From a virus (taxonomy: Duplodnaviria > Caudoviricetes), in IMG/VR virus record IMGVR_UViG_3300037424_000697, positions 1-52,270 of that record: a stretch of DNA of 52,270 nt; one strand, written 5' to 3'. The notes beneath the pieces were generated by a model. The model was not told where the DNA came from and did not search any database. It saw only the letters and a list, made by a program, of their open reading frames with translations. The position numbers and the translations under genes were made by a program. Shown one piece after another: positions 11 to 51,506 of the stretch; position 1 is the stretch's first letter; each line of letters starts with the position of its first letter.

Positions 11-252
11 CACTGACTTTGAAAATTTGGGACACAAAAATACTTTATTCCCCTGCTACAAAATAGTCAAAAACATGTTATTTTACCTAGAAAACATAAA
101 TAACTTACTTTTACAGTTAATAAACAATTCATCTGCTAATTAACCTAGATCAGAATCTACACCCTCTTTAATCTACTTAACCGTTTAAATAGAACAGAAA
201 AAGAATCTACTTTCTCGAGGTACACTTAAAGTACTACTTTAAGTAACTGATA

Positions 253-265
253 TAAGTTATTGAAA
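253..265 (-). promoter_or_regulatory. Possible IHF-binding site near the left end
   Basis: Reverse complement TTTCAATAACTTA has one mismatch to WATCAANNNNTTR; lambda cosB also has an IHF site. Confidence 0.35.
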
Positions 266-306
266 TATAACAAGTTATAGCTTTCCCAAAATCGCTATTT
301 TTAAGA

Positions 307-346
307 AAGAAAGAAAGAATCATTTTATACCCTTGAAACGTATATT
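307..346 (+). repeat. 40-bp element; inverted copy at 31160-31199; 22-bp core also at 32906-32927
   Basis: AAGAAAGAAAGAATCATTTTATACCCTTGAAACGTATATT matches the reverse complement of 31160-31199 at 39/40. Confidence 0.9.
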
Positions 347-582
347 CATATATATAGTGATAAATATTTTATATATAGAGGGATACGGTAATCTTCTTTA
401 TTCTTTTCCCTGAGAAAGCAGCACTGGTTCAAAGTGCTCTCTGAAGCTCTCCTGGACGCTTTAGGGACAGTTCAACGTTCAAGATGAACTACGCACTGTC
501 TACCTGTTAAACCCTGTCTATACCTATTATATGCATTATTTGAAAGAATCAATTCTATTTAACAAATTAAATAAGAAATAGG

Positions 583-611
583 TTGACACGGAAGGTATTT
601 TATAGTATATT
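583..611 (+). promoter_or_regulatory. sigma70-like promoter for the packaging/structural operon
   Basis: TTGACA (583-588), 17-bp spacer, TATATT (606-611). Confidence 0.65.
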
Positions 612-659
612 AGTGAGGGGAGGTATAACCAAAATTATACCTCTAGGTCAATTATACAG

Positions 660-680
660 TCTAGGTTAAGTTAACCTAGA
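660..680. promoter_or_regulatory. 21-bp palindrome made of two inverted ACCTAG motifs (operator/parS-like)
   Basis: TCTAGGTTAA-G-TTAACCTAGA, with further motif copies at 643 and 709. Confidence 0.6.
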
Positions 681-724
681 GTTGACAGAGAACTTGAAAA
701 ACTTTAATCTAGGTTAACTTTTAT

Positions 725-1330
725 ATGTCAGAAGAAATTTACGTCCCTCGAAAATGGCTCATAGAACAGTGTGGCTTTGAGATCATGGCTCTTAAGGATC
801 TATTAAAGCGTTTTGGTTTTAATGAGGATAAAACAGACGAGGGATATCCGTTATCACAAATTATCAAGGCATTGGCTGAGTCAAACAAAGTGAAGGGCAA
901 AAGACGTACTTTTAATCTAGCACAACTTGAAGAGATAAAAAAGCAAGAAGAGATTATCAAACTTCAATTGTACAATGGAGAAAAGAATGGTACACTTATT
1001 AAACGCTCCTATGCAAAAGAACGTGTACGTATAGTATTTCAGAATGTGGTCTCAAAGATACGTTATGCCATTAAAAATGTTTCACCTAGATTAGTTGGTG
1101 TTGACAGTGCACGTGTAATTGAAGAAGTGATAACAAAGAGCTGGAATGGAGCCATTGAACTTTTAGAAGGGCAAGCAAAATGCTCAGACTGGGAAAGTGA
1201 TACTGCCGATGGTACTGAGTTATCTTCAACTAAACCCCTGACTCAATATGAAAATATAAGTATGGAAACTCTAGGTAAAGAAGATGAATCATCTATAAAT
1301 GAATCAATGATTGATTCAATAGAAAGATAA
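725..1330 (+). CDS. terS: Terminase small subunit (lambda Nu1-like)
   Basis: First gene after the putative cos; N-terminal HTH-like region, coiled coil and a KLQL..GE..GTLI pattern typical of Nu1-like proteins; GpA-type TerL downstream. Confidence 0.7.
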   Translation: MSEEIYVPRKWLIEQCGFEIMALKDLLKRFGFNEDKTDEGYPLSQIIKALAESNKVKGKRRTFNLAQLEEIKKQEEIIKLQLYNGEKNGTLIKRSYAKERVRIVFQNVVSKIRYAIKNVSPRLVGVDSARVIEEVITKSWNGAIELLEGQAKCSDWESDTADGTELSSTKPLTQYENISMETLGKEDESSINESMIDSIER

Positions 1331-1335
1331 CAATT

Positions 1336-2133
1336 ATGGGTATCTACTCAGAAAACCTAATTGATTCAATGGGTGAAGCTGCTGTCATGTACGACGAAGC
1401 CAATCTGTACGACAAACTGACTATAATAAACGGGAGGAGACCAGTGATACACCAACGCTCTTCCGACTGTTTTGCTGTTACCCTGATTGGTAAAGAGTTA
1501 AGAATATCAATTCGTGGCTCTGACGGTAGTCATATATGGCAGAAGGCAATTGTGTGGATTGACAACCTGTTGAACAGTAAGCCAGATAAGCAAGGGTGTC
1601 ATCCCGGTTTTAAAGAAGCTGCAGAGTGGATACTCGGATGGCTTGTTTTGAGTTACCGTATTCTCGATAAGGACTTTGATTCAGTAAACGTATCGTGTCA
1701 TTCTCGTGGAACTGGAATAGGTGTGAACTTACTTCCTATTTTAGGTGAATATCTTTGGAGTCACGAAAAAAGAGTGCCTATTAATATGGATGCTTTTGCG
1801 TTCGTACCGGGGATGAATCAATTCGGTATAAAAAATATTTGGGATGCGGCTTACGATAAATACGGAATAACTGCCCGCTTCGTTCGCAATCCACGCGATA
1901 TCGCTACGACAATGCGACGGGGTCCGGGAGCAAGCCAAGGAGCCGACCCTTATAACGGTGTTAACTATATCGAGCTTCCTCCCGATACTTGGATACAGAA
2001 AGTTATAAAGAAAATAGGAGGATTCCACGAACATAGACCCAGAGAATATGCGGATGGAATGATTTTACTTTTTAAAGGTAATCAGAAATTGGTTGGGAGA
2101 ATTCGTAAATACCGTAACATGATGGTTAACTAG
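1336..2133 (+). CDS. Class 3 lipase-like alpha/beta hydrolase
   Basis: SIRGS oxyanion motif, HPGF, nucleophile elbow CHSRG, RFVRNPRD acid-residue segment and a C-terminal His (HEH). Confidence 0.7.
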   Translation: MGIYSENLIDSMGEAAVMYDEANLYDKLTIINGRRPVIHQRSSDCFAVTLIGKELRISIRGSDGSHIWQKAIVWIDNLLNSKPDKQGCHPGFKEAAEWILGWLVLSYRILDKDFDSVNVSCHSRGTGIGVNLLPILGEYLWSHEKRVPINMDAFAFVPGMNQFGIKNIWDAAYDKYGITARFVRNPRDIATTMRRGPGASQGADPYNGVNYIELPPDTWIQKVIKKIGGFHEHRPREYADGMILLFKGNQKLVGRIRKYRNMMVN

Positions 2134-2143
2134 GTTAAATCTT

Positions 2144-4669
2144 ATGGCAAACATCACAGTGACATCAACTGGTTATTGGGGAGATGATTCCATACTGAGC
2201 TCAGGATCGTGGTCTGGGCTGGTTTGGAATGAGACGGTTACTATTCAGGACGGAGCGGTGTGTACGGTTGATCCTGGGGTACGGTCTCCTACTGGAATTG
2301 ATGTAGGTGCGAATATTATCTGTATTGCTGGATTTTCTAAATTAGTATTTAATAATACATCTACAACCGTACCGGTTAAATACTATGGCCCAACGTCTGG
2401 AACGTTACAAGTTGAATCAGGTTGTGAATGGATTGTTAACGGTGATTGGATTACAATTCATACCGGAGATGGTTCTGAAGGGCAAACAACTTCTGGTTGG
2501 ACAGATGCAGGTTTTTTACCTGAAGATGAACCTGGAGGATTGTGGGTTGAAACAGGCGACGGTACAAATGTTTTCGAGGAGTGGGCAAATGTTGGGCACA
2601 CCACTAATGGGTTAGGCGGCATTGGTGTCGGGGTATTAGGACGATGGTTTAGTTATAACAATGCAACCGGAGTAATCACATTTGGCAATGGGGGTAAACC
2701 TAATGCAGTTACCTCTGCCGCAGGCTCCGGTCAGCCGACTATTAATGTGACTGTTGGAGCCGATTTTACGGTAGGTGATTATGTGCATATTATTGAAGGG
2801 ACTGTTCGTGAAACAATAATTATAAGCTCAATCAGCTCGAATGAATTAACGATGACAACAAATTTGGTTAATTCATATACTACAGCTGCAATTGTTAGAA
2901 TTGTAAAGGGCGGGAATATTGTTCCAACCGGGTCTAGGGTAAGAACTCCGAATATTTCGATTGGAACTATAAATAGTGGAGGAGTTCACGAATATAATAC
3001 AACATTAGCAAATAATTTTAGATTAGATTGTTCTCCCGGCGGAGTACTAAATTTTGCTTGTTTAATATTATTCGGTTTCTATTTAAATGTATCGTCTGCC
3101 GGTAGTTTAAATGTTACCTATGTCTCCGGATTAACTCGAATTTTATTGAGTAGTTCTCCAAGTTCATCATTATCACATGTCATTATTGGTATCTGTAGAT
3201 ATTTTTCCAGTGAGTTAGAGGCTTTTTTACTCCCTAGTTATAGTATCAGCCAAAATTGTATTATTACCAATTGTTTTTTTTCCAGAAAATCTATTCATGT
3301 TGTAAGTGGATACCCAATCGGGTGCACATTTACAGATTGCCTGTTTATAATAACTGAACGCGGTTTATCATATGCATCCAGGCCGTTGAATTTTACTGAG
3401 GTTATTAATTTAACTGTACGTAGATGTCTGTTTGTAGGGTCAGAGTCAACAGCGACGTATGGAAATGGTAATTTATTTGAAGATTGCTCCGTATCTGAGT
3501 CTCCCCATGGTGCTCCGTATGGATCAAATAACCCATCAGCTTTACTTTCGACACCCGGTACGTTCGATACTATAATTAATAACCTAGCAATAATTCCAGA
3601 TGGGTCAGCAACTGGAATTTCGTATATACTAGCTGGTGGTACAACTGTAATAAATTGCAATATCACACGATCCGATTTACGTGCATTATCACTAACATAT
3701 TCCATTCCGGAAAAAATTATTCAATCTGTATTGGTTGTTTTGGCTACATCAACTATAGGGCCTATTATCGGATCGTCTACTAATTATAGTATCACTATTC
3801 AAAATATTAAAACCAACTCGTTTGGTAATACAAATTGGACGCTGCCTACTGCAAATTATTTAATATTTAAGGGCTATCAGATACCATCAACAACATTCAC
3901 TCTCAGTCTAGGTGCAGTTACAGATACTCATTTTTATGAGTTGCATACCTCTACCGATGGCGGTTTGATGGGTATTATGTTTACTCCTAAAAAATCACAT
4001 TCCGGCTATGAGTGTTCAAATGATACTGATTTATTATGGAATTATAATGGATCACTATATATACCGGTTGCCGGCGGTTGGATAGAGTATACGTGGCCGC
4101 ACACAATTATTGGAATCACAGGTTTTTCGTCTGGTGGTTTAATTACTATAGATGGTTCAGGTACAGGTAATTTTACAATTACATATAAAATAGACGTTTT
4201 AGACGGAAATGGCTGGACAGATTGGGTAACATTAAGTATTGCTAATTTGAGTTCGCACACAATTAACCCGTTGTTAGGGTTCAAGTTCAAATTAAAAATT
4301 TCTCACAGTGTGGGTAGTATGTCTGATTATTTAAACAAGCTGCACTGGAGTACCGATGTTGATTATGACAATTACCTCTATCCAATTGACACAGTCAACG
4401 TCACCCTGCAAAACATTGTCGATGGTTCTAGGTACTATATCTACAATCAGACCACCGCAAAAGAAATTGCCAGCGGAGTACAATCCGGCTCCGCCGACAT
4501 AATCATACCCGACGTCCCCTACAACGGAGTCAACGAAATTTTACTTATTAGAGTACGCAAGGGTGGAGGAGGGAGCGATGATTATAAACCATTTGAAACT
4601 AATGCTACACTTACTGAGGATGGTGCAACAGTATGGATTTCACAAGTATTGGATGATCTTACAACCTAA
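2144..4669 (+). CDS. Large beta-rich virion/receptor-binding-like protein with a central beta-helix
   Basis: 841 aa, G/S/T/N-rich, repeats such as ITNCFF/FTDCLF/FEDCSV; C-terminal domain resembles that of the next ORF. Confidence 0.5.
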   Translation: MANITVTSTGYWGDDSILSSGSWSGLVWNETVTIQDGAVCTVDPGVRSPTGIDVGANIICIAGFSKLVFNNTSTTVPVKYYGPTSGTLQVESGCEWIVNGDWITIHTGDGSEGQTTSGWTDAGFLPEDEPGGLWVETGDGTNVFEEWANVGHTTNGLGGIGVGVLGRWFSYNNATGVITFGNGGKPNAVTSAAGSGQPTINVTVGADFTVGDYVHIIEGTVRETIIISSISSNELTMTTNLVNSYTTAAIVRIVKGGNIVPTGSRVRTPNISIGTINSGGVHEYNTTLANNFRLDCSPGGVLNFACLILFGFYLNVSSAGSLNVTYVSGLTRILLSSSPSSSLSHVIIGICRYFSSELEAFLLPSYSISQNCIITNCFFSRKSIHVVSGYPIGCTFTDCLFIITERGLSYASRPLNFTEVINLTVRRCLFVGSESTATYGNGNLFEDCSVSESPHGAPYGSNNPSALLSTPGTFDTIINNLAIIPDGSATGISYILAGGTTVINCNITRSDLRALSLTYSIPEKIIQSVLVVLATSTIGPIIGSSTNYSITIQNIKTNSFGNTNWTLPTANYLIFKGYQIPSTTFTLSLGAVTDTHFYELHTSTDGGLMGIMFTPKKSHSGYECSNDTDLLWNYNGSLYIPVAGGWIEYTWPHTIIGITGFSSGGLITIDGSGTGNFTITYKIDVLDGNGWTDWVTLSIANLSSHTINPLLGFKFKLKISHSVGSMSDYLNKLHWSTDVDYDNYLYPIDTVNVTLQNIVDGSRYYIYNQTTAKEIASGVQSGSADIIIPDVPYNGVNEILLIRVRKGGGGSDDYKPFETNATLTEDGATVWISQVLDDLTT

Positions 4670-4681
4670 ATAGGAGTACAC

Positions 4682-6379
4682 ATGGCTATAGAAGATGATG
4701 TTTTAATTGACTATGTAAATAAGAGGATTTATGGAGAAACTACATTCCTGGCAGGCAGTACGTTTTATACTGTGAATGAACTATATACTCATATTATGGA
4801 TACTTTTGACGGTGCATCTCAAATGGATGATTCTGTACCTTTTGGTAGTGGCTCTAACGTTTTAACATATATTGTTGCTAATGGTTGGTATATTGAACAA
4901 GCTCTAATAGAGCATTTAAAAGGAGCTTCAATCGAGACCAGTGGGTACAATGATGCAATACGTATTTTAACGTTAAATAGTGGGCATACAATTGTAGCGG
5001 CGGATATTGGTGAAACTGTAACTGGCGGTACAACCGGAGACACTGGAATATTATTAGATGTTCTAGGTAATAATTTATGGGTTCGTATGGATGATTCTGG
5101 TGATTTATTTGACGACGATGATGAAACAATTATATGTAATTCACATAGCGGTACTGTGGGAGGTTCTGTATCACTTACTGGTGAGGAGTTGTTTTCAAAT
5201 GTTTTCTCAATTGGAACAGTTAATAATGGTTATGCTTATATCTCACAGAACGGTTCAATATTGACATCATGGTGGGGTGAGGGTAACAGCGGTTTACAAA
5301 TTGATGTGCTGGTAAAAGTTCGCATAGCTGGAACACTTATTGATAGTGGAACAGTTACAGTATATAACCGTAATTACGGGGATACATATGCCAATGCAAG
5401 TGCCGATCTTTCCGGTGGAGGTCGTGTACCTGTTTCAATTGAAACTCAAGAAGATCCATCCATAACGTTAACTAGTGCACAAATTGATGATTATATTGCA
5501 TCAGCCCATGGTGGGACTGCTTCTACTTCTGAAATTGCCGTTGCATTTGGAACTTACGTAGCTGATATAGACGATAGCGGTGTAGATGAAGATTATGTAT
5601 GCCGTATAGATGAAGATTCTCAGGCACAATCTGTCGTATATCAGGCTCTTCAGTGGATGACTTCTAAAGATCGTACTGCACAAATATTAGATGGGGTTCC
5701 TGCTCCTCTATATAGAGCTTCAGACGCAGGGTATACCCCAATTAAGACCGCACCATTTGCTTCTATGGCCGGTACAACTCTTATTTTTGCACAAGGTAAC
5801 TATCCTATAAATGTAGGTACAGGTTCATATATTTCGACAGACACTATTGGCGTACAGCATACTCCACCTAGTACAATGTCTGTTGCATTAACTGGACTTG
5901 TTTCTGGTGATCGATGTGTAGTATTCAGAGCTTTGAATGGAGAAGTAATAAAGAATATGTTTACTTCTCATGCTACAAATAATGATAATACTGATGAAAC
6001 TTTTGAAGTACAAGAATCGATACCTAAAGATACACCACAATCTGGTTATATTAGGATTGTAGATACTTCAGCTAGTACGGAGCAGAGATATGCATATATT
6101 AGCTGGACAGGATCTGTATTTACACTATCTGATGCTTTATCTCAGGACTATGATGATACAGATACTGCATATGTAGGTTATATTGATGAGTCTGCATCCA
6201 CAACAAGTATAAGTAAATCTGGTCTTCAGTATGTTTCTGATCGAACAGTTATTGTTCGTGTAAGAAATTCATCGACTGGCGGTAACCAGATTATTCCGTT
6301 TGAAGTACAGGCAACAATTCAAAGTACAGGTCTATCTGTACCAGCATCTAGAAACCCTGATAACGTGATAGGAAACTAA
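4682..6379 (+). CDS. Acidic beta-rich putative virion structural protein
   Basis: 565 aa with AGGAG RBS; C-terminal VRVR..GG...PFE..AT motif shared with the previous ORF; N-terminus resembles the next ORF. Confidence 0.5.
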   Translation: MAIEDDVLIDYVNKRIYGETTFLAGSTFYTVNELYTHIMDTFDGASQMDDSVPFGSGSNVLTYIVANGWYIEQALIEHLKGASIETSGYNDAIRILTLNSGHTIVAADIGETVTGGTTGDTGILLDVLGNNLWVRMDDSGDLFDDDDETIICNSHSGTVGGSVSLTGEELFSNVFSIGTVNNGYAYISQNGSILTSWWGEGNSGLQIDVLVKVRIAGTLIDSGTVTVYNRNYGDTYANASADLSGGGRVPVSIETQEDPSITLTSAQIDDYIASAHGGTASTSEIAVAFGTYVADIDDSGVDEDYVCRIDEDSQAQSVVYQALQWMTSKDRTAQILDGVPAPLYRASDAGYTPIKTAPFASMAGTTLIFAQGNYPINVGTGSYISTDTIGVQHTPPSTMSVALTGLVSGDRCVVFRALNGEVIKNMFTSHATNNDNTDETFEVQESIPKDTPQSGYIRIVDTSASTEQRYAYISWTGSVFTLSDALSQDYDDTDTAYVGYIDESASTTSISKSGLQYVSDRTVIVRVRNSSTGGNQIIPFEVQATIQSTGLSVPASRNPDNVIGN

Positions 6380-6380
6380 T

Positions 6381-7016
6381 GTGTCTATTACACACATATA
6401 TACTGGAGTTACAGGTGATATTATATTTGATTTCACTACTCAAATTATATCTTGTGAAAACACGATTATTACCCTAGAGATACAGGAGCTAGTAAATGCC
6501 TGCAGAGAAGCAGAATATTCAGAAAAGGGAGTTTCTTTCCCCAAAATTTGCAATGCTAGCGGGAAAGAGTACCTTGACGTTGACAATGGGGTGCAGGTCG
6601 GTATCACCATCGTGTTATTGGACGGGTGGGTCATATATACAGAACGAAGTTCTGGAGTTTTCAAAGTCATCGGAGGGAATCTTGTGCAAGTGTCAGGTGG
6701 GGACCCGTTCGAGCCAAATCCCCTTGTCACCTATGTTAATATCCAAAGTGCAGCAAGTACTGTTGTCTCGGTCTCAAGTGGAAGCGGTCTCTCTACAGCA
6801 GAGCATAACAAACTCATGGCCATCCCTGAAGAAACAATTACTGAAGAAAGATATATCGACCTTGCCTTCAACAGAACGAACATTATTGAAGGAACCGAAA
6901 CAAGTAAAAGAATCACAAGTTATAAAGCAGGGAAAGTAGATGAAATTGATGTTAATGTTACTTATGATTCAAGTGATGAATATGCACTTCCTGAATCTGA
7001 AGAGGTACAGTCATGA
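6381..7016 (+). CDS. Putative virion structural protein
   Basis: 211 aa, GTG start, tightly coupled to neighbours; N-terminal similarity to the 4682 ORF. Confidence 0.45.
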   Translation: MSITHIYTGVTGDIIFDFTTQIISCENTIITLEIQELVNACREAEYSEKGVSFPKICNASGKEYLDVDNGVQVGITIVLLDGWVIYTERSSGVFKVIGGNLVQVSGGDPFEPNPLVTYVNIQSAASTVVSVSSGSGLSTAEHNKLMAIPEETITEERYIDLAFNRTNIIEGTETSKRITSYKAGKVDEIDVNVTYDSSDEYALPESEEVQS

Positions 7017-7282
7017 TTTCTAGGTCATTTATTTATAGACGTACATTAACAAATTCTGTTATATATTTCCCTTTTGGTTTTGTTGTTGATATATACATAC
7101 ATATTATTGGTGATTCTAAATTAACAATGTTTCTAAGAAAAGTAAGTAATTTAACTTTAAGTATAGTTAATCATTCTAGGTTAAATAACATCGACGTGAA
7201 CAGCAATCTGGTTACTGAGATTAATTCCAACTCTGGTACATCAATAAATATTATTGGTAATTCAACTTTACAGGTGAAATAA
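7013..7282 (+). CDS. Hypothetical protein
   Basis: Start/stop overlaps with both neighbours. Confidence 0.5.
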   Translation: MISRSFIYRRTLTNSVIYFPFGFVVDIYIHIIGDSKLTMFLRKVSNLTLSIVNHSRLNNIDVNSNLVTEINSNSGTSINIIGNSTLQVK

Positions 7283-7596
7283 TGGCTACAATATATAATT
7301 ATTTTGGAGATGATCAGCCGATCTTTTTAGATTTTTATCTTGGTGAAGCAGAGGATGTAGATTTATCTCTAGCAACACTGTATCAGACACGCTTAGTAAG
7401 AGTGTCTAATGTTGGTGCAGAATCTATTATAGATGTATATAGTGCCGCTAGAACTGGCACAACACAGAGGATTACTAGTTTTATTCCGGGAGGGATAGTA
7501 CAAAAAGGTAATAAATATTATGTACAATCACTTGTTACTTTTTCATTTGATCCTTACCCTATTCCAGGTGCGCCAATTTATTTTTATGTAAGATAA
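7282..7596 (+). CDS. Hypothetical small beta-sandwich-like protein
   Basis: TAATG coupling to the upstream ORF, AGGTG RBS. Confidence 0.55.
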   Translation: MATIYNYFGDDQPIFLDFYLGEAEDVDLSLATLYQTRLVRVSNVGAESIIDVYSAARTGTTQRITSFIPGGIVQKGNKYYVQSLVTFSFDPYPIPGAPIYFYVR

Positions 7597-7613
7597 CCGA
7601 AAGAGGATTTATT

Positions 7614-8681
7614 ATGGCAAATTATTATGTGAAACCAGATGGCGATGACGGTGATGATGGAACAACTTTCGCTTTAGCTAAAGCAACGTTAAATGCTGTT
7701 TATGCCTTGTGTTCAGCAGGTGATACTGTTTATGTATGTTCAAGTGAAGCTTCACCATTTGTTGATATACTTTTAGAATTGAGCGGCGCTGATAATGTTA
7801 CTTTCATAGGTACCAGTCCTACTGATGGTGCACCTTACACTGGCAACACTAGAGCAACTATCTCAGTAACAGGTGCATCTAATATAATAACTGCTATTAA
7901 TGATAATAATAGTTGTAAGTTTCACAATATACAATTACTGGGTGTATCTACATCTATAGGCTATATATGTTACCAACAAGCTACTGTAATTGGCAATATT
8001 TTTATAAATTGTGAGTTTAAGGGACTTCAAATTGGTATATATACATATAAAGTAGGCAGTATAGCCTCATCTGATGTACATGCTTATAATTGTATATTCA
8101 ACCAGTGCACGTACGGTATTTATATATATGACCTCGGTTCTAATTACGCCGCATCTGGAATATGCAATGTTTTTAACTGTATTTTTAAAGGATGTAGTTA
8201 TGGTATTTGTAGAGATGCTCCATACCTTACTGCTGGAATATATGCTTGTCAAAATATGTTAAATATCCAATCTTGCAGATTTATAGATAATAGTGTAGGT
8301 ATAAGAAATATAGGCAGTGGGACTATAGATATACTTAATAGTGTGTTTTACCTTAATTCATCTCACGGCATATCTTTAAATGCTGTATATGCGTATTTTA
8401 ACCTAGTTAACAGTATATTTCATTCTAATGGAGGATACGCAATATCTTCTGATGTAACTTCCGGTTTTGGTAGTTTTCATGGCTATTGTGATTATAACTG
8501 TTACTATAACAATACTACAGGAATAGTTAACGCCAATATTAACGGAGGAACAACACCTGGAAGTCATAATATTTTAACTAATCCATTATTTGCCTCAACT
8601 ACTTTAGGAAGTGAAGATTTTCGTTTACAAGAAGAGAGTCCATGTTTAGGCACAGGTATAGGGTATACTAGTGGACAATAA
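7614..8681 (+). CDS. Right-handed parallel beta-helix (pectin lyase-like) protein, possible depolymerase/adhesin
   Basis: N-terminal YYVKPDGDD..DG....A.AT, repeated NCxF..C.YGI coils, C-terminal NPLF...DFRLQ..SPC.G.G signature. Confidence 0.75.
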   Translation: MANYYVKPDGDDGDDGTTFALAKATLNAVYALCSAGDTVYVCSSEASPFVDILLELSGADNVTFIGTSPTDGAPYTGNTRATISVTGASNIITAINDNNSCKFHNIQLLGVSTSIGYICYQQATVIGNIFINCEFKGLQIGIYTYKVGSIASSDVHAYNCIFNQCTYGIYIYDLGSNYAASGICNVFNCIFKGCSYGICRDAPYLTAGIYACQNMLNIQSCRFIDNSVGIRNIGSGTIDILNSVFYLNSSHGISLNAVYAYFNLVNSIFHSNGGYAISSDVTSGFGSFHGYCDYNCYYNNTTGIVNANINGGTTPGSHNILTNPLFASTTLGSEDFRLQEESPCLGTGIGYTSGQ

Positions 8682-17139: not shown

Positions 17140-17148
17140 GGAGTTAAG

Positions 17149-31278: not shown

Positions 31279-31382
31279 GTATGTTTTATTTTTTGAATAT
31301 ATATTGTATTTAAACGCTTAAATAGACTATAAACCTGCTAGGTTAAAAGTCTAGGTCAAAAATCACTTGAAAGGCGGTTTAA

Positions 31383-43179: not shown

Positions 43180-43745
43180 AAGAAGAAAATGGGTACCACA
43201 CAGATAACAATGGTAATAAATGGAATAAACTGTTTTATACAGAAGAACTGGCTTTAAAAGCTTCAAATAGTTGCATAAATTGCATAAATTGCACGGATTG
43301 CATGAATTGCACGGATTGCATGAATTGTGGGTATTGCATGAATTGTGGGTATTGCATGAATTGCACGGATTGTGGGTATTGCATGAATTGCACGGATTGC
43401 ATGAATTGTGGGTATTGCATGAATTGCGTAAATTGCACGGATTGCATGAATTGTGGGTATTGCATGAATTGCGTAAATTGCACGGATTGCATGAATTGTG
43501 GGTATTGTAGTAATTTTTTATCTAATCCAGAGAGAATAGTATCTCCTGTTTTAGGTTCTAGAAAAAGTCAAACATGTATATACTTTCTAGGTAAAATCTC
43601 GCAAGTTACATGCGGATGCTTCAATGGAACATTAGATAATTTTGAAAAAGCTGTTATAGAGACACACAAAGGTACTAAATATGCACAGGAATATTTGAGT
43701 TGGATAAAAAGAGTAAAAAATTATATCTATGGAGATGTTAAATGA
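43176..43745 (+). CDS. Cys-tripeptide repeat protein with GCFxGTL C-terminal domain
   Basis: (CMN/CTD/CGY/CVN)n; C-terminal GSR...CGCFNGTLDNF. Confidence 0.7.
   Translation: MKEENGYHTDNNGNKWNKLFYTEELALKASNSCINCINCTDCMNCTDCMNCGYCMNCGYCMNCTDCGYCMNCTDCMNCGYCMNCVNCTDCMNCGYCMNCVNCTDCMNCGYCSNFLSNPERIVSPVLGSRKSQTCIYFLGKISQVTCGCFNGTLDNFEKAVIETHKGTKYAQEYLSWIKRVKNYIYGDVK
43272..43508 (+). repeat. 9-bp-unit coding tandem repeat
   Basis: Shuffled units TGCATGAAT, TGCACGGAT, TGTGGGTAT, TGCGTAAAT. Confidence 0.9.
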
Positions 43746-44737
43746 AAGATTTTCTCTGTAAAGCACACAGTGCCGGTATTAATGGTGACTATTCAAATTA
43801 TATTTGGTCACGTAAACTTAATGGATTCTCTATGTTGTGGGACGGGGGAATAAGTATAGGTCAACCTATAGGTCAAGTCTTATGGGGTAAAGAAAGAGCC
43901 AATGAAGATCGTTATACCAAGTGCACTGGTCTTTGGACAAGTGACGCACATATTGTTCATGCTCCTGAGTGGTGGTATATAGACTTCCCTAAATTTATAC
44001 CGTTGCAAGGAGAGTGCTGGTATAACGATAATAAAACATATAGTTCGGTGTGTAACTGTACACTAAAGAAAAGCATAGAGGATTCACGTTGGCATAAATT
44101 AAAGTTTGTAGTGTATAACTATAAACCCTATTGTTTATTTAATGGTCTAGGTGAATATAATTTTGAGGGTAATATTATGTTTCATCAACACTACCCTAAT
44201 ATATCTTATTCTAAAAGGCTAAAAAACATAGTAGGTACATCTATTATTTATAATATATCTGAGAGTAGTATAATAAATGTTATTGATTTTTATATAGGTT
44301 TTCCTACTAGTCTAGGTGAACTTTTAAAAGAGAAAACCATAGATTCTAACAACTGGGAAGGTATAATGTTAGCTAACCCTAACGCTCATTATACCTGTGG
44401 GCGTTCTTATGATCTCTTAAAATTAAAACCAGAATATGATATCGAGGTAGAGGTTATAGGATATAACCAAGGAGATAAACGTCACACAGGAAGAATGGGT
44501 TCACTCAATGTTAGGTTGAAATGGGATGAAAAGGTTGAAAGTTTTCATGGAGGTAAAAAAGATTATATAGGTAAAACTGTTTACTTTTCAGTAGGAGGAG
44601 GGTTTGACGATACTCAACGTGAATGGAGTTATGTACATGATAAGTTCAGTATAGGTAAAGTTATCAATATCAAGTTTAATGAGGTAGGTGAAAATGGATC
44701 TATTCCTTCAGCGAGATGGAGCGGCGAAAATGAGTGA
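43742..44737 (+). CDS. ATP-dependent DNA ligase
   Basis: SRKLNG (motif I), QGE, EGIML, LLKLKP, OB-fold VGGGF. Confidence 0.82.
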   Translation: MKDFLCKAHSAGINGDYSNYIWSRKLNGFSMLWDGGISIGQPIGQVLWGKERANEDRYTKCTGLWTSDAHIVHAPEWWYIDFPKFIPLQGECWYNDNKTYSSVCNCTLKKSIEDSRWHKLKFVVYNYKPYCLFNGLGEYNFEGNIMFHQHYPNISYSKRLKNIVGTSIIYNISESSIINVIDFYIGFPTSLGELLKEKTIDSNNWEGIMLANPNAHYTCGRSYDLLKLKPEYDIEVEVIGYNQGDKRHTGRMGSLNVRLKWDEKVESFHGGKKDYIGKTVYFSVGGGFDDTQREWSYVHDKFSIGKVINIKFNEVGENGSIPSARWSGENE

Positions 44738-44976: not shown

Positions 44977-45339
44977 ATGATGCAAGAAGAGACTTTAAAA
45001 ATAGGAAATCCTTTAAGAGTCTACATGGAGCATCTAGGTTGGGCAACAGTAAAAACACATGGAAATCAGTTTCAAAAAGGGTTACCAGATTTCTATGCAA
45101 TGCACCATAAATATTCACCTAGATGGATTGAGACCAAAATACACGGTAGATCTTTAACAACAGCACAATTAAAACTATTCCCTATTATGCTATCTATGAA
45201 TGTGCCACTTTATATAATAGATGGAGATGACTTCAGAGGAGAGAAAGGATTACCTTCACTTAAACAGGCATATCAAAAATTATTTCAGCCCTCTAGGGCA
45301 GCATTTTATTTAACTTCGGCTTTAAGGAGTTTAGTATGA
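44977..45339 (+). CDS. VRR-NUC-like nuclease
   Basis: KGLPD, WIETK, LTTAQ motifs. Confidence 0.75.
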   Translation: MMQEETLKIGNPLRVYMEHLGWATVKTHGNQFQKGLPDFYAMHHKYSPRWIETKIHGRSLTTAQLKLFPIMLSMNVPLYIIDGDDFRGEKGLPSLKQAYQKLFQPSRAAFYLTSALRSLV

Positions 45340-45545: not shown

Positions 45546-45930
45546 TGATGGAAAAGGAATAGCACCGTATCTATGGGATGTACTTACAGTTAAAGATGAA
45601 AAACCTGATATGCTGCACCTGTACTCTGGTCAAGCTATTGACTTATTGTTAGATAAGGATGTTCAGCCGCTATGTAAACTTCAAAACGGACAAACCGTTT
45701 ACACTGTTGTTGTTAAAACTTTACCTAGGAATATGGTAGCTTTTGATATAACCAAACATGTTAAACTGTTGACAAGTGATGCATTCTTTGCTTTGAAGGT
45801 ATTCACTTTGAAATGTAAATTTAGTGCTATAGCAACAATGGCTATGGAAAAACACGGATCAGAACAGCAAAAGAATTGGTATAAAGTAATAGGGTTTATG
45901 GAGCCCATTTTTAACGGAGGTTGGATGTAA
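45520..45930 (+). CDS. Hypothetical protein
   Basis: AAGGAG RBS. Confidence 0.6.
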   Translation: MKLYLVLFNDGKGIAPYLWDVLTVKDEKPDMLHLYSGQAIDLLLDKDVQPLCKLQNGQTVYTVVVKTLPRNMVAFDITKHVKLLTSDAFFALKVFTLKCKFSAIATMAMEKHGSEQQKNWYKVIGFMEPIFNGGWM

Positions 45931-46484
45931 TGGAAATACATGTAAGAGTAATAGAGGAAGCGGGATACAATTCAGCTATGCTAGGTTTATCTTTTAATAA
46001 AAATCAAAATGCAGATAATATGTTCAATGTGGCAAAGAAATTGGCTCCTTTGGATTTAGGACATAATAAATTTCTGGAACAGATCTATGTATGGGTTGAA
46101 GTAAATGCACCTAGGTATTGGTGGCAGGAAGCTGACACATTTAGGTTGTCTAGTAAGTCAAGTCAATCCACCATGCACACAATACTTAAGAACGAATTAA
46201 CTGAAGAGAATTTTGAGGATCATGATACTGACGGTATTAATTTATACTTTCTTAATACCCTTTTAAAAGCGGAAATGCTGGTTGAGTTAAAAAAGAAATT
46301 ACCTGAAGGATTTATGCAAAAGCGTATGTGGTGTATGTCATACAGGACACTCAGGAATATAATCTTACAGAGACGGAACCACAGATTACCTCATTGGAAG
46401 GAGTTTATTAAACAAATGCTAATACAAGTTATTCATCCTGAACTTTTACCTAGCCTTGAAGGAGATAATAAATGCAACAATTAG
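45930..46484 (+). CDS. ThyX-fold-like phage protein (divergent)
   Basis: GH.KFLE, APRYWWQEAD, STMH, LPEGF.Q, YRTLRNI..QR..HRL; lacks the canonical RHR motif. Confidence 0.55.
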   Translation: MEIHVRVIEEAGYNSAMLGLSFNKNQNADNMFNVAKKLAPLDLGHNKFLEQIYVWVEVNAPRYWWQEADTFRLSSKSSQSTMHTILKNELTEENFEDHDTDGINLYFLNTLLKAEMLVELKKKLPEGFMQKRMWCMSYRTLRNIILQRRNHRLPHWKEFIKQMLIQVIHPELLPSLEGDNKCNN

Positions 46485-46804
46485 ACTATTTACTGGGTCA
46501 ATGCGTGTTACAAATAAAATTAGATAATCTTATGGTGGCTAAAGACTTTTTAATTATACGTATAGACACTAATGAGAAGGACGTGGCTAGGTGTAAACCC
46601 ATCAGTGAAAGCGAAGCAAGTAAAATTATTCAAAAATATGGTTTCAATATAGGTTCTGCATTGAGGCATATCTTTGCTTTCACAAGAACAATTAAAAAGG
46701 GAAGTCGTCCCAATAAAGCCGAGCTAAGAACAGCTTTAAAGTACATTAATAAAGAAATAGAAAGACTTTCTCCTAAGGAGGACACACACAGTGAACAAAA
46801 TTAA
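46472..46804 (+). CDS. Hypothetical protein
   Basis: GFNIGSA...L.TA.KYI..EI pattern similar to the DUF3310 C-terminal half. Confidence 0.5.
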   Translation: MQQLDYLLGQCVLQIKLDNLMVAKDFLIIRIDTNEKDVARCKPISESEASKIIQKYGFNIGSALRHIFAFTRTIKKGSRPNKAELRTALKYINKEIERLSPKEDTHSEQN

Positions 46805-47738
46805 ATTTCTTAGCGTTAGTGCTCTTAATATGTTTCTTGAGCAGCCAAACAAGTTTTATTGTACACGTTTAGCAGATGAAAAGTTACCTAGAGAACCACA
46901 ATCACTTGCTGCTGCAGCCGGTACAATATTTGATATTAATGTGAAACTGTGCTTAATTGATAATAGATTACTAAAAGGTTACATTGACAACGCAGAAGCA
47001 GTTAGAACTATAAAGAATAGATTTGTAAACTTTCCTTGGTATCAAGAAGGAAAAAAAAGTAAGACTCTCATTGAACTCTTCGAGGAATCATTGGAGCCGC
47101 AGAATAGAATTGATGAGATTTACAAAGTAGGTAAAAGACTTTTTGATGCTTACTTTAATAGTCCGTTGATTAGGAGCAATTACTTTGATATTGAAGATAA
47201 AAATATCTTTGAATTAAAGGTGAAAATAGGTGGAGTAGAACACGTTGTACCCATCTATACTGTTATAGATTGTGTTTTACAGGGAAAGGATTATGGACTT
47301 TTTCCAATGGATTTAAAAGTCTCAGGATATTCAAGTGGTGCCTCACCCAAACCTAAGTATAGTGGGAGTTGGGACGAGTTAGGTAATAGTTTAGGTGCTC
47401 ACAAGAACTACGTTAATGATATTTCTTTTGAGTTAATTGATGAAGCATGGGCAACTCAAGGGTGTACTTATGGATGGAGTCTAGGACGAAAACTCTTTGA
47501 GCCTTTCCCTTTTCATATTCATGGTGTATATATGGGCATACCAAAACAAGATGGATCTAGGTCAATAAAGGTGTGTGAATATAAAGGAATTATAACAGAA
47601 GAGTTTCAAAAACTGACGGCGTTAAAGTATATCACTGCGTGGAACACAATTAACGCTGCCAGTGGTAGCGTTGCCCCTTGGTGTGATGAACCATTGTTGT
47701 GTGAAATGTTATCAAGGACAGAACATTTTGGATGGTGA
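46791..47738 (+). CDS. PD-(D/E)XK nuclease (Cas4/RecB-like exonuclease)
   Basis: LSVSAL, GT.FD, IE, VID, DLK, Q...Y motifs; GTG start after AGGAGG. Confidence 0.7.
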   Translation: MNKIKFLSVSALNMFLEQPNKFYCTRLADEKLPREPQSLAAAAGTIFDINVKLCLIDNRLLKGYIDNAEAVRTIKNRFVNFPWYQEGKKSKTLIELFEESLEPQNRIDEIYKVGKRLFDAYFNSPLIRSNYFDIEDKNIFELKVKIGGVEHVVPIYTVIDCVLQGKDYGLFPMDLKVSGYSSGASPKPKYSGSWDELGNSLGAHKNYVNDISFELIDEAWATQGCTYGWSLGRKLFEPFPFHIHGVYMGIPKQDGSRSIKVCEYKGIITEEFQKLTALKYITAWNTINAASGSVAPWCDEPLLCEMLSRTEHFGW

Positions 47739-47794
47739 ACGTAGTATCCTTTTGTAGCTTTTTGAAAAAATCAAAAAACATTTTTATTTAAGAA

Positions 47795-47824: not shown

Positions 47825-47825
47825 C

Positions 47826-48263: not shown

Positions 48264-48453
48264 CTCCGGTTGTTCTTCGTGGCCTTACCATTGTTACAGC
48301 GGAGCAGCGAAATTGACAAATGATTATTATTTGTAAATTGACACCGTTTGTCAATTGACAAATAGGAATACCTCAAGTAAACTAGGTTAACGTTTTGTCA
48401 AGGTGCACTTTGAATTGTGTTCTTATTGTGTCAACTATACCATATATGGTATG

Positions 48454-48650
48454 GTGAAATGACTACAATTTTTGTATAAATGTAAGTCATTGATTTTTAT
48501 ATAGATATAAAGGTATTTTATTAGGTGTAAACTTTTTGGGGTGAAATGACTACAATTTTTATATGAATGTAAGTCATTGATTTTCATACAAATACAAAGG
48601 TATTTTATCGGGTGTAAATTTATTGTGGCCAAATGACTACAATTTTTATA
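48454..48650 (+). repeat. 87-bp tandem repeat (about 2.3 copies) carrying IHF consensus sites
   Basis: AAATGACTACAATTTTT at 48457, 48544 and 48631; AATCAATGACTTA (minus strand) at 48483-48495 and 48570-48582. Confidence 0.85.
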
Positions 48651-48757
48651 TATACTATAAATGATATTTACTACATGAATGATATTTATATATAATAGAA
48701 CGGGTACCTATTATATATACGCTATATATGAGTGTATATAGGTTATGTTTTATCTAT

Positions 48758-48773
48758 TGGCATGATGATTGCT
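48758..48773 (+). promoter_or_regulatory. sigma54 (-24/-12) promoter
   Basis: TGGCAT-N5-TTGCT with exact spacing, upstream of small ORFs and ParB-like gene 2. Confidence 0.7.
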
Positions 48774-48809
48774 TTATATATTAGTGTGCTTAAACGAAAG
48801 GTTTTTAAA

Positions 48810-48887
48810 ATGTTAGTAAACATAATCCATTTTTTAGTGCTTGCGATTTCTTTAGGATTTATAATTTTATCGTGTAGGTATAAATAA
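48810..48887 (+). CDS. 25-aa hydrophobic peptide
   Basis: GAAAGG RBS; MLVNIIHFLVLAISLGFIILSCRYK. Confidence 0.4.
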   Translation: MLVNIIHFLVLAISLGFIILSCRYK

Positions 48888-48889
48888 TT

Positions 48890-49085
48890 ATGAAAAAAAA
48901 AACCTACTATATCCGGTAACGGTAAATATATTGTTGAAGATGGCGAACAGAGAACAAAAACAGCTTATTATATGAAAAAATTGTTAGATAAGGAACAGAT
49001 AATTATGAAATTGCATTTTTTATATTGTGCTCTATATGTTACACTATGTATATTAGTTATAATTTTTTTATTAAAAGGAATATGA
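48890..49085 (+). pseudogene. Small membrane protein gene frameshifted in an A10 run
   Basis: Removing one A from 48893-48902 gives a 64-aa ORF with a C-terminal TM helix. Confidence 0.4.
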
Positions 49086-49086
49086 A

Positions 49087-49218
49087 ATGTATGAACTAAT
49101 TCAGGAACTTGAGCAATCGCTTGACTTGTGCGAAACGGTCGAAATGAATCAATCTATTATTGATTGGATTATTGAAAATAGTTTAACTTATAATATGGAA
49201 GGAACATTACATATCTAA
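49087..49218 (+). CDS. Small acidic protein (43 aa)
   Basis: AAGGA RBS; MYELIQELEQSLDL... Confidence 0.45.
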   Translation: MYELIQELEQSLDLCETVEMNQSIIDWIIENSLTYNMEGTLHI

Positions 49219-49292
49219 TAATCGTCAGGCTGTCGTTCATACGTGAACGTAAAATTTAACTTATATTTGACAATTTACAAAAGGAATTTATT

Positions 49293-50258
49293 ATGAATAC
49301 TAATAATTTTAAAATTGTTTCCGTTTCTTCAATCCTCATGCCCGTTAACGGGATGCTTCGTCCTTTTGAACAGGGAAAACAGGAAAAAGATAAAGAAGGC
49401 AATCCGATTGAAGGAAAGGGCGATAAAGCATATCTTACGTTTTTTGAGAGAAAAACGTCAATGATCAAGGAACTTAGTATATCAGGATACGCGAACCATA
49501 CTCCCATTACAGTGTATGAAGGGCGCAAAGGATTGACAATTGAGATAGAGGAAGGTGTTGTAGATACCGAAGGGAAATACATTGTTGCAGATGGCATGCA
49601 GCGTACCGGAACAGCTTTACAAATCGGAATTGATACACCAGTTCAAATCATGATCATAAGTGAAGTACGTGCAAGAGAGTTAATGATTAGTGCCGGATAC
49701 CATCGTAAACAGAATAGCCCGGCACAATTCACAAAAATACTTCGCGAAGATATAAAGAGCAATCCCGATGTAACTGTCGATTCCCTTTGCAAACGGTATT
49801 CTATGAGTGAAGCGACTATCAAGCGTTTTCTTGATATTTTGACTTTGCCTATAGACGTAACGGATAAAATAGGTGTATCAATCCCGTTACATGTGGGTGT
49901 TACCCTTGCAGATAAAATCAAACGTCTAGGCAAAGGGAAAAAGGAAAACATTGACCTATTGATAATGAGTGCTATTGATGGCACACTGGAAAAAGTAGCG
50001 GGTGACATATCGGCAAAGCAACAGGCGGAAAAATTGGCAAGTAAGAATATTACTCCTGTTTATCAAGAATTGGCGCCTGTTTACAATTCGGAACGGGCAA
50101 GAATTATCAAAGCGGAAATTGACAATATGATTGAAGAGTTGCCCGATTCTGAATTTTTCAAAGGACAATTGGAACTATGGAATTTCATTCACGGAATTTC
50201 AGAGAGTGATCGAAAAGCGGATCACGAAAAATGGGATACTCTTCACGCGAAAAAGTAA
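49293..50258 (+). CDS. ParB-like protein 2 (paralog of 33747..34730)
   Basis: PITV...YIVADGMQR, HTH LCKRYSMSEATIKRFL..L.LP, shared C-terminal SEF..G...KWD. Confidence 0.72.
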   Translation: MNTNNFKIVSVSSILMPVNGMLRPFEQGKQEKDKEGNPIEGKGDKAYLTFFERKTSMIKELSISGYANHTPITVYEGRKGLTIEIEEGVVDTEGKYIVADGMQRTGTALQIGIDTPVQIMIISEVRARELMISAGYHRKQNSPAQFTKILREDIKSNPDVTVDSLCKRYSMSEATIKRFLDILTLPIDVTDKIGVSIPLHVGVTLADKIKRLGKGKKENIDLLIMSAIDGTLEKVAGDISAKQQAEKLASKNITPVYQELAPVYNSERARIIKAEIDNMIEELPDSEFFKGQLELWNFIHGISESDRKADHEKWDTLHAKK

Positions 50259-50282
50259 ACTGGTGAAAGTTAACCTATAACT

Positions 50283-50306
50283 AACGGCACTAAATTTAGT
50301 GCCGTT
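50283..50306 (+). terminator. Hairpin after ParB-like gene 2
   Basis: AACGGCACTAAA-TTTAGTGCCGTT palindrome followed by T-rich sequence. Confidence 0.6.
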
Positions 50307-50331
50307 TACTTTAACTAAAAGAAGGTGTGCT

Positions 50332-50976
50332 ATGTTAAAAAGAATTAAATTATATCACATTGTTGATAATAAAGAAATAATCGGAATACATAAAAGGTTG
50401 ATAGGTGATTGCTCTGGTTTGCATGGTGATTGCTCCGGCTTGATAGGTGATTGCTCCGGCTTACGGGGTGATTGCTCCGGCTTGATAGGTGATTGCTCCG
50501 GCTTGACAGGTGATTGTTCCGGCTTACGGGGTGATTGCTCCGGCTTACGGGGTAATTGTTCCGTTTTGCTAGGTAATTGTACCGACTTGACAGGTGATTG
50601 TACCGACTTGATAGGTGATTGCTCTGGTTTGCATGGTGATTGCTCCGGCTTGATAGGTGATTGCTCCGGCTTACGGGGTGATTGCTCCGGCTTACGGGGT
50701 AATTGCTCCGGCTTATGGAACGATTGCACCGGCTTGACAGGTGATTGTTCCGGCTTACGGGGTAATTGTTCCGGTTTGCACGGTGATTGCACCGGTTTGC
50801 TAGGTAATTGTACCGGCTTGGCAGGTGATTGCACCGGTTTGCACGGTGATTGTTCTTGCTTGGCAGGTGATTGTTCCGGTTTGCACGGTGATTGTTCTTG
50901 CTTGCTAGGCAATCTTAACCTTTGTATAATTGATAAAATAAATGGAACAGATATTAATACTTTAATAAAGGAGTAA
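50332..50976 (+). CDS. Heptapeptide (GDCSGLx) repeat protein
   Basis: About 24 tandem 21-bp units; start at MLKRIK after AAGGTG. Confidence 0.75.
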   Translation: MLKRIKLYHIVDNKEIIGIHKRLIGDCSGLHGDCSGLIGDCSGLRGDCSGLIGDCSGLTGDCSGLRGDCSGLRGNCSVLLGNCTDLTGDCTDLIGDCSGLHGDCSGLIGDCSGLRGDCSGLRGNCSGLWNDCTGLTGDCSGLRGNCSGLHGDCTGLLGNCTGLAGDCTGLHGDCSCLAGDCSGLHGDCSCLLGNLNLCIIDKINGTDINTLIKE

Positions 50977-50984
50977 AATATTCT

Positions 50985-51506
50985 ATGTCAATGTATAGAT
51001 GGGAAGATAAAAAACAGTATTTTCAACGTCTAAAATCAGGTGCCTTTGAGCATACTTATGAGAGAGTTATTCATTATCTAATGAACAACGGGTATGCCGC
51101 AAAAGTCAAGCAAGTATCGGACGCTTTAAGTATTCCAAGGAATACACTTTTATATGTTCACGTTAATAGATGTGAATATCTTGTATATGATAAACAACAC
51201 CAGTTAATTAGTTTGAACAGGAAAGGAAAAACTCTAGGTGATTTAGGTATAGATACAGAATTCCCGGAGGATAATACTAATATTTTTAATTTTGTAACCG
51301 CACTATTAGTTAATAGTGGTATGGATGAAAATGGTGTGTTTGGATTGACGTTCAAAAATAGTATTCCAAACGTGCAACAGTTTTGCAGAGACAAGGGAAT
51401 ACCGTTCGGGACATATGATATTGATCAAAATACTGTTTTTGAACAGTGTAAAAAAATTGCACGTAAATTCAGAAAGGAAGGTGAATTAAGATGTAAAATA
51501 TCCTGA
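50985..51506 (+). CDS. Putative winged-HTH DNA-binding protein
   Basis: AAGGAG RBS; VKQVSDALSIPRNTL HTH-like segment. Confidence 0.5.
   Translation: MSMYRWEDKKQYFQRLKSGAFEHTYERVIHYLMNNGYAAKVKQVSDALSIPRNTLLYVHVNRCEYLVYDKQHQLISLNRKGKTLGDLGIDTEFPEDNTNIFNFVTALLVNSGMDENGVFGLTFKNSIPNVQQFCRDKGIPFGTYDIDQNTVFEQCKKIARKFRKEGELRCKIS

Follow-up and report, generated by a model that had tools for sequence, protein, structure and literature searches.

The hexanucleotide CTAGGT (ACCTAG on the opposite strand) is spread at even distances over the genome of an uncultured tailed virus (Duplodnaviria; Caudoviricetes), represented by the complete 52,270-base IMG/VR record IMGVR_UViG_3300037424_000697, which is classed as linear and about 72% complete, has a G+C content of 35% and is referred to here as the window. 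The word is selected at the DNA level and is not a composition effect, and its properties fit a repeated recognition site. Its reader may be the phage's own initiator, a primase-helicase of 900 amino acids (aa) encoded at 27284–29986 on the minus strand, in which case the copies would be initiator or priming words tiled over the genome; this assignment is regarded here as plausible, while being held somewhat short of probable.

The window contains 126 exact copies of the word between positions 85 and 51239, 66 reading CTAGGT on the plus strand and 60 on the minus strand, with a mean gap of 409 bp, which bears out a preliminary description of this DNA that had counted about 125 copies in about equal orientations. 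Dinucleotide shuffles (n = 100) yield a mean of 21.75 copies (standard deviation 4.99, maximum 34), none of them reaching 126, while a control word, CTAGGT read backwards, occurs 10 and 9 times. Shuffling synonymous codons inside genes (n = 200) gives 33.3 ± 4.3 copies (maximum 45) and shuffling codon order (n = 200) gives 29.3 ± 4.0 (maximum 40), both being conservative because the inflated counts of CTA and GGT codons are retained. The enrichment claimed in that description thus holds against dinucleotide nulls (22 ± 5) and against codon-preserving nulls (29–33) of the kind it had proposed. Leu-Gly dipeptides are spelled CTAGGT in 50 of 108 cases, though CTA accounts for just 219 of the 1376 leucine codons.

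An amino-acid or codon effect is ruled out as the cause, as the word survives both codon-level shuffles and occupies every frame, sense and antisense, in which it does not create a stop codon. The 112 genic sites comprise 50 in frame 0 and 15 in frame 1 of the sense strand, and 1, 26 and 20 in antisense frames 0, 1 and 2, respectively; the other 14 of the 126 are intergenic or at a gene edge. These counts agree with the earlier remark that the word falls in several frames and between genes. A ribosome-binding signal, suggested by the AGG of the word and by some sites preceding an ATG, is likewise ruled out as a general explanation, since 112 of the 126 sites are intragenic and they lie on both strands.

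The word extends beyond its core, T being found at position –1 in 80 of the 126 sites, A at +7 in 87 and A at +8 in 84, and the extended form read from the logo is T-CTAGGT-N-A-A-N-W-T-T-Y-A. The 3' flank is 75% A+T and the 5' flank 62%, as compared with 65% for the genome. Single-mismatch variants of the core are not enriched, with the sole exception of ATAGGT (76 copies versus 39 expected). Outside the word the tetramer CTAG is scarce (76 copies versus about 167 expected from base composition), so that the word goes counter to the usual avoidance of CTAG. The palindrome CCTAGG is also avoided, with 12 copies on both strands versus 55 expected from a maximal-order Markov model, given the frequent CCTAG and CTAGG, and CTAGGA, CTAGGC and CTAGGG are rare in the window (10, 4 and 9 copies, respectively).

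Conservation of individual sites is seen in the closest relative, locus L009, whose terminase is 90% identical and of which 12.2 kb can be aligned with the window at 79% nucleotide identity. In the aligned stretch 19 of the 21 window sites are kept in the same column and on the same strand, whereas the share kept is 26% among hexamers in general and 19% among 816 hexamers of the same composition (binomial p of about 1e-9 for conservation of the word). The conserved footprint around the word reaches from –1 to about +12.

The sites are also more evenly spaced than chance would place them. The coefficient of variation (CV) of the gaps is 0.76 for the whole window and 0.59 for the region from 8.4 to 48.4 kb, as compared with 0.98 in Poisson simulations, none of 5000 being as low. 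Gaps shorter than 150 bp number 13 where 35 are expected, and gaps longer than 800 bp number 5 where 12.7 are expected. Among 20 core variants compared, exact CTAGGT is the most even (z –4.3), TAGGT, AGGT and AGGTA being less so. The Poisson comparison, a check named in the preliminary description, therefore shows word gaps that are more even than random, and the selection at the DNA level proposed there is upheld by the codon-preserving nulls, by the retention of sites in a relative of 79% identity and by spacing that is even regardless of orientation.

This last property deserves separate treatment. The depletion of short gaps is seen in all four orientation pairs, each with a median gap of about 350 bp, and the orientations follow one another at random (runs test z 1.1). 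Taken strand by strand, the gaps have CVs of 0.71 and 0.77, versus 0.59 for the pooled set, and when the sites of one strand are slid relative to those of the other the CV rises to 0.82 ± 0.06, with none of about 1000 shifts reaching 0.59. Whichever protein reads the word, the effect of reading it is independent of its orientation.

Density varies along the genome, peaking around the primase operon and the replication genes, with 5–9 words per 2 kb at 28–48 kb and a local excess of 8–9 per 2 kb near the primase operon, as compared with 3–5 per 2 kb in the structural genes. The four longest gaps listed in the preliminary description are real and measure 1452, 1154, 1225 and 2187 bp, the last being the longest word-free stretch (48388–50568). 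A word-poor island with about one word per kb extends over 1336–8681 on the plus strand, between a gene resembling a small terminase subunit gene (TerS-like; see below) and the large terminase gene, and consists of genes without family matches, encoding proteins of 841 and 565 aa among others. It includes the gene for a beta-helix protein at 7614–8681, which is missing from L009, so that the two word-poor islands (1336–8681 and 48388–50568) look like later imports.

Relatives were collected in two ways, through the large terminase and through the 900-aa primase-helicase; L010 and L011 are near-identical and are treated as one lineage, as are L012, L017 and L035. The scan of terminase alignments gave 14 loci, including L009, which shares CTAGGT, while more distant relatives show no excess of this word. 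Ten of the 14 instead have a top-ranking word of their own built on GGT: TGGGTC or GTGGGTC in L010, L011, L045, L051 and L052, TTGGGT in L042 (31 copies versus 4.2 expected), CTGGGT in L043 (24 versus 3.5) and L050 (26 versus 3.3), TGGGTTA in L044 and GGGTTAC in L049. Pooled spacing is significantly even in L009, L010, L042, L043, L044, L045, L050 and L052, and not significantly so in L049 (p 0.08) and L051. Enriched but clustered words with a CV above 1 in L046 and L047 (TCTGGTA), L048 (GGTAC) and L023 (CTGGT) are taken as coding or tandem repeats and were not counted, nor was the word of L032, which is a tandem repeat. The terminase relative of L048 lies at the end of a 208,085-base contig classed as viral; it may represent a prophage embedded in host sequence, and the clade's host might then be named from the contig.

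Eighteen relatives of the primase-helicase were examined, namely L012, G001 and 16 loci of at least 5.5 kb, nine of the 25 loci being shorter than 5.5 kb and left out. Five of the 18 (L012, L017, L035, L022 and L019), whose enzymes are 44–51% identical to that of the window, have an enriched GGT word of their own. The L012/L017/L035 lineage carries 148 copies of AGGTA in 20 kb versus 48 expected, with a pooled CV of 0.68 that is matched by none of the shifts, while L022 and L019 carry TGGGTCA-type words. A dense tandem array of 13 copies is found at the contig end of L012 (19856–20185), with a unit containing ATTGACA and AATATCAT, and could be a repeat from the terminus or the origin of that phage.

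When aligned on GGT, the words of these phages share the frame N-T-R-GGT-N-A-N-N-T(T), in which five positions, T-x-GGT-x-A, are invariant across what may be called dialects. A conserved core with drifting flanks is what would be expected of a conserved reader with evolving specificity. The dialect lineages are at most 72% identical to one another at the DNA level, and in protein-guided codon alignments only 0–2 of 13–34 site positions are shared between dialects, slightly above chance in L050 and L012. As positions are not shared while density and evenness are kept, the word is evidently built anew at other places with each change of dialect.

The best lead to such a reader is the product of 27284–29986, an archaeo-eukaryotic primase (AEP)-type primase-polymerase fused to a D5 or superfamily 3 (SF3)-type helicase. 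Pfam scans covered 53 open reading frames (ORFs) of the window, those below about 90 aa being mostly left out, and PHROG scans ten; this protein matches Pfam DUF5906 at residues 626–727 (E-value 2.4e-14), its N-terminal part matching no Pfam family. The residues D105xD107, S139, G142, G144 and H146 of the DxD and SxxGxGxH motifs, and G633-K634-S635 of the Walker A motif, are invariant in 15 homologues. A structural model of the whole protein (predicted local distance difference test score, pLDDT, 84.4) has the C-terminal region of the phage NrS-1 polymerase as its best Foldseek match (E-value 1.4e-13), with further matches to AsfvPrimPol, MPXV E5, PriRep1 and the SaPI5 primase-helicase. A model of the N-terminal 420 aa (pLDDT 85.7) matches the AEP domain of S-2L PrimPol (E-value 1.4e-3), Prim-PolC, LigD-Pol and CAPP (to 5e-3). 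The protein therefore has an AEP catalytic fold with motifs of the DxD and SxxGxGxH type and an SF3/D5-type helicase core with Walker A. In the models the catalytic domain is followed by helices at 246–258, 266–278 and 296–306, in the place where a helix bundle reading the template word might be sought; comparison with the helix bundles of pRN1 (E-value 0.49) and NrS-1 yielded nothing specific.

The NrS-1 enzyme shares this architecture of AEP domain and ring helicase and offers the closest known parallel, beside which the GTG site of pRN1 ORF904 may be listed. It is reported to depend on an 8-nucleotide (nt) template word, 5'-TTTGGTTA-3', just 5' of which primer synthesis begins (PMC8718748; PMC7102993). 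PMC7102993 places two copies of the 8-nt site at the centre of the NrS-1 genome. The word TTTGGTTA matches all five invariant positions of the clade frame T-x-GGT-x-A. In the NrS-1 genome (L055) the 8-mer occurs once (1.8 expected), at the junction between two of 11 (G)GTTACACTTT iterons, which lie within about 310 bp directly after the primase gene (17061–17371) and are split six to five between the strands, being thus present in both orientations like the words of the window. GGTTAC is common to the NrS-1 iteron GGTTACAC and the GGGTTAC dialect of L049 and L022. The two genomes differ in layout, NrS-1 having one cluster of 11 copies and the window about 126 single copies that evenly tile 52 kb. 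In the relatives without the signal, a count of 7-mer clusters revealed no iteron clusters beside the primase gene.

Taking together the conserved motifs, the fold match to NrS-1, the AEP N-terminus and the fit of the NrS-1 8-mer, we infer that the 900-aa enzyme may read the word and that the following would result from its binding. Starting from an origin cluster, the words of this clade would have come to cover the entire chromosome in either orientation, with one about every 400 bp. The enzyme would dock on the core N-T-R-GGT-N-A, the adjoining AT-rich stretch would melt readily or be bound single-stranded, and a primer would then be laid down or a helicase ring loaded. Phage DNA, and not host DNA, would thereby become primable or restartable every few hundred bp. 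Selection would keep at least one site per interval and remove redundant near neighbours, from which even and orientation-blind spacing would follow. Further points in favour of this reading are the selection on the word and its shared frame, the identity of at least 44% in all five primase-helicase relatives with an enriched word, the A+T-rich 3' flank and the peak of word density around the primase operon and the replication genes.

Several observations weigh against this assignment. Priming on a template strand would be expected to leave each strand evenly spaced, whereas evenness is here a property of the pooled set, as it is in L017 (single-strand CVs 1.25 and 0.89, pool 0.68). This orientation-blind spacing is the main tension with simple lagging-strand priming, and docking at the level of the duplex fits it better, as would any function for which a site on one strand or the other is equally good within an interval. 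Nor do orientations switch across the presumed origin, the plus-to-minus ratio being 35:32 to the left of 31 kb and 31:28 to the right. The word is dispersed, unlike classical iterons, which cluster at one origin beside the initiator gene. Of the 18 primase-helicase relatives, 13 (G001, L020, L021, L023, L024, L025, L027, L028, L030, L032, L033, L038 and L039) lack an even word, 12 of them being 31–40% identical to the window enzyme and L033 giving a partial N-terminal match, and NrS-1 itself has no genome-wide enrichment of its site; the enzyme alone is thus insufficient to produce the signal. The N-terminal 420 aa match the N300 fragment of NrS-1 weakly (E-value 0.04–0.09), and the link between enzyme and word consists of homology and one published site of a distant relative. 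Co-occurrence of the two is not independent evidence because every relative was found via the large terminase (TerL) or the enzyme, and no relative contig carries both the structural and the replication module. Finally, the words clustered in leaders at the TerS-like gene (643–714 in the window, 209 and 269 in L010, 84–167 in L045) could equally mark a packaging or operator site.

These clusters bring in a second explanation, in which the words are duplex docking sites of another phage protein (TerS-like, ParB-like or unannotated) that coats, bends, compacts, tethers or marks the chromosome, the leader clusters being its operator or cosB-like sites of high affinity. With a site every 400 bp or so, coverage would be complete, and spacing blind to orientation is to be expected if the outcome of binding is symmetric. 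The TerS-like gene itself (725–1330, plus strand), an alternative candidate reader, has no Pfam or PHROG family match; homologues of 26–36% identity lie directly upstream of the large terminase gene in seven related loci, by which synteny it is provisionally identified as a small terminase, while in the window about 7.6 kb separate it from the large terminase (8982). Just upstream of its ATG at 725, the leader carries four words (643+, 661+, 674– and 709+; 643–714), among them the perfect palindrome CTAGGTTAAGTTAACCTAG at 661–679. A promoter-like TTGACA/TATATT pair recognised by eye (583–611) precedes the cluster and an 8-bp inverted repeat (621–628/635–642) abuts it. The cluster is a candidate strong site, of origin-like, cosB-like or operator type, and the layout at 643–1330, in a phage with a lambda-type terminase and portal, is one that we take to recall lambda cosB. 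Comparable clusters are formed by two of L010's own words, GGGTCGATTTTG, at 209 and 269 in the corresponding leader, and by three of L045's own words just before the terminase (84–167). At 150–270 in the L010 leader, after a TTGACA/TATATT promoter, at least five copies of TTGGCTAACTGA are interspersed with the pair of GGGTCGATTTTG words and form another repeat family of this control region.

ParB-like proteins, which the preliminary description had put forward as the best candidate readers, do exist in the window. The first (33747–34730, plus strand) contains a ParB helix-turn-helix domain (PF17762, E-value 2.4e-9) and, by eye, a GSRR arginine patch; the second (49293–50258, plus strand) is its paralogue, matching a profile of ParB-like homologues (E-value 3.6e-67) and no Pfam family above the cut-off. 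The co-occurrence check suggested at the time goes against them, as the genes do not track the word: homologues are present in eight loci without an even genome-wide word (L024, L025, L027, L028, L030, L038, L039 and G001), and the profile search found none in L019 and L022, which bear words and for which 10–22 kb of sequence is available, nor in L020 and L023. Sites of the ParB/parS, Noc and KorB type are 14–16-bp palindromes and number tens per replicon rather than more than 100. These systems resemble the window in that a single DNA-binding protein has numerous sites along the replicon, and the window has its two ParB-like proteins and the palindrome at 661–679; its only other palindrome is the overlapping 46109/46111 pair, all remaining sites being lone asymmetric words, unlike the palindromes bound by ParB dimers. 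The ParB-like proteins are accordingly poor candidate readers. For a duplex binder in general, clusters beside TerS or TerL are found in just 3 of 11 structural-module sequences (the window, L010 and L045), and the match of the GGT core to a primase-polymerase site would be left unexplained; we know of no function for dispersed small-terminase sites. A duplex-binding protein other than the primase-helicase is therefore considered somewhat unlikely.

Two direct words also lie 13 bp apart at 31338–31356 on the plus strand, within the leader that precedes the early operon running rightward (ATG 31383). The divergent intergenic region between that operon and the primase operon contains, by eye, two short direct-repeat pairs, two copies of TATATCAATTTGA and two of CTTTCTTGTTTGTCAAT (30983–31060), which may represent a classical origin, an operator or regulatory iterons distinct from the dispersed word. 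The window and L012 share the motif CGCTTAAATAG, which closely precedes the first early gene.

In a third explanation a site-specific nickase or a base-modifying enzyme acts on the words, so that virion DNA would be nicked or modified about every 400 bp on either strand. The shortage of gaps below 150 bp (13 versus 35) would suit nicking, as nicks lying close together would leave the DNA broken or gapped, and the phage encodes its own DNA ligase (43742–44737) and small nuclease-like genes at 44977–45339 (a weak VRR-NUC match, E-value 0.044) and 46791–47738 (Cas4-like by eye). Phages reported as nicked nevertheless have few nicks, four in Andromeda and "localized" or "multiple specific" ones in tf and BF23/T5. 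The nicks of such phages lie on one strand. Like the nick sites of T5, tf and phiKMV-type phages, the stoperators of cluster A mycobacteriophages are short asymmetric repeated words. Compared with the handful of sites described for nicked phages, the window has 126, mostly intragenic and in both orientations. Stoperators, about 30 in number, occupy intergenic DNA and follow transcription in their orientation. As for modification, a gene with a MazG-like dATP/dGTP diphosphohydrolase N-terminal domain (36131–36502, E-value 1.3e-17) hints at editing of the nucleotide pool, but the 53 scanned ORFs yielded no match to a methyltransferase, transglycosylase or HNH/GIY-YIG family, and a modifying enzyme needs no enrichment of its sites. 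Nicking or modification is thus judged unlikely. Together with the MazG-like gene, a weak ThyX-like gene (45921–46484, E-value 6.4e-5, below the cut-off) hints at nucleotide-pool editing; no base-modification enzyme was recognised among the scanned ORFs.

The word might alternatively be dictated by the host, as an analogue of an uptake sequence or of Chi read by a host machine, with dialects reflecting different hosts. Uptake sequences of the USS and DUS type (uptake signal and DNA uptake sequences), as in Pasteurellaceae and Neisseriaceae, consist of an asymmetric core flanked by AT-rich DNA, occur in both orientations and in all frames, are evenly spaced at about one per kb and form dialects around a fixed core. 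The statistics of the window word are alike, and its word-poor islands look recently imported. USS and DUS differ in being chromosomal, read by the uptake machinery of the cell and sparser than one per 400 bp. Signals of the Chi type depend on orientation, whereas orientation is irrelevant here (66:60 overall, and nearly balanced in both halves), and if the word were present in host DNA, the imported islands should be richer in it than they are. A host-dictated word is consequently rated improbable.

Least probable of all appears molecular drive without benefit, in which near-cognate sites would be turned into perfect words through the fixed DNA primer that a primase-polymerase lays down or through biased repair tracts. 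Enzymes of the NrS-1 class are able to make DNA primers (PMC8718748), and the word-poor islands are consistent with slow accumulation. Existing sites are nevertheless strongly conserved, including the flanks of the 14-bp footprint that would not be copied; short and long gaps are both depleted, and near-cognate variants are not depleted as a class.

Priming sites of a different kind are found in phage T7, where the gene 4 primase recognises 5'-(G/T)(G/T)GTC-3', a short asymmetric GGT(C) word like that of the window; the GTGGGTC dialect contains GGGTC. A T7 study reports that about 10 nt of 3' flank contribute to site choice and maps 26 active primase sites, some clustered, without reporting enrichment or even spacing (PMC12839067). 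The T7 primase is a Toprim/zinc-finger enzyme on a superfamily 4 helicase with strand-specific sites, unlike the AEP/SF3 enzyme of the window.

The remaining gene content is that of a phage with a lambda-type large terminase (8982–10853), a lambda-family portal (11066–12571) and an S49 protease (12525–13937); tail tube and tape-measure genes, an SNF2-like helicase and an AAA protein were also identified among the window ORFs. An exonuclease gene lies at 26682–27338 on the minus strand. The rest of the phage's own replication set occupies 40876–44737 on the plus strand, comprising a family A DNA polymerase (40876–43179) and the DNA ligase, both identified in the Pfam scan, and between them a gene at 43143–43745 that matches a PHROG without assigned function. 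At the start of this last gene (about 43136–43540), 11 copies of the 7-mer GCATGAA, counted together with its complement, lie within 400 bp and are probably a tandem repeat. A 21-bp tandem repeat at 50432–50755, carrying AGCCGGAGC on the minus strand in 12 copies forming two runs with at most one mismatch, sits within the gene 50299–50976, which matches a "minor head protein" PHROG and the Pfam MSG repeat; it is probably a 7-residue peptide repeat.

The phage has no close cultured relative, as all tblastn matches of its large terminase among cultured phages are below 30% identity, and megablast of 15 kb of the window against 50,697 phage records gave no match. One public DNA run contains the sequence, a sediment metagenome stored as contigs that may be the very sample from which the record came, and no RNA run is listed. 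A scan of species genomes returned just two matches, of 26–27% identity, in alphaproteobacterial metagenome-assembled genomes, and no prophage relative was found in it.

Few short words combine five-fold enrichment with even spacing and conservation, and searches of one literature library found no description of a genome-wide even word in phages. Where such words are understood, as with Chi, uptake sequences, KOPS and parS, each of them led to a machine by which one DNA is distinguished from another. The present word is tractable in that it counters CTAG avoidance, belongs to a family of dialects found across about a dozen uncultured phages that diverge from one another, takes up other positions whenever its dialect changes and points to a candidate reader. 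If that reader is the primase-helicase, sequence-specific AEP primases would shape whole genomes, and these phages would supply natural pairs of enzyme and word for studying the evolution of specificity; if it is not, a DNA-marking or coating system of a new kind would be hidden in them. It is possible, though doubtful, that this uncultured clade carries a "self" word read by its own initiator, with fragments of a few hundred bp acting as autonomous priming or loading units of a distributed origin, the dialect drifting with its reader and the sites being rewritten at each shift. Such a word would be a phage-encoded counterpart of the bacterial uptake dialects, serving in replication or in the protection of phage DNA rather than in uptake.

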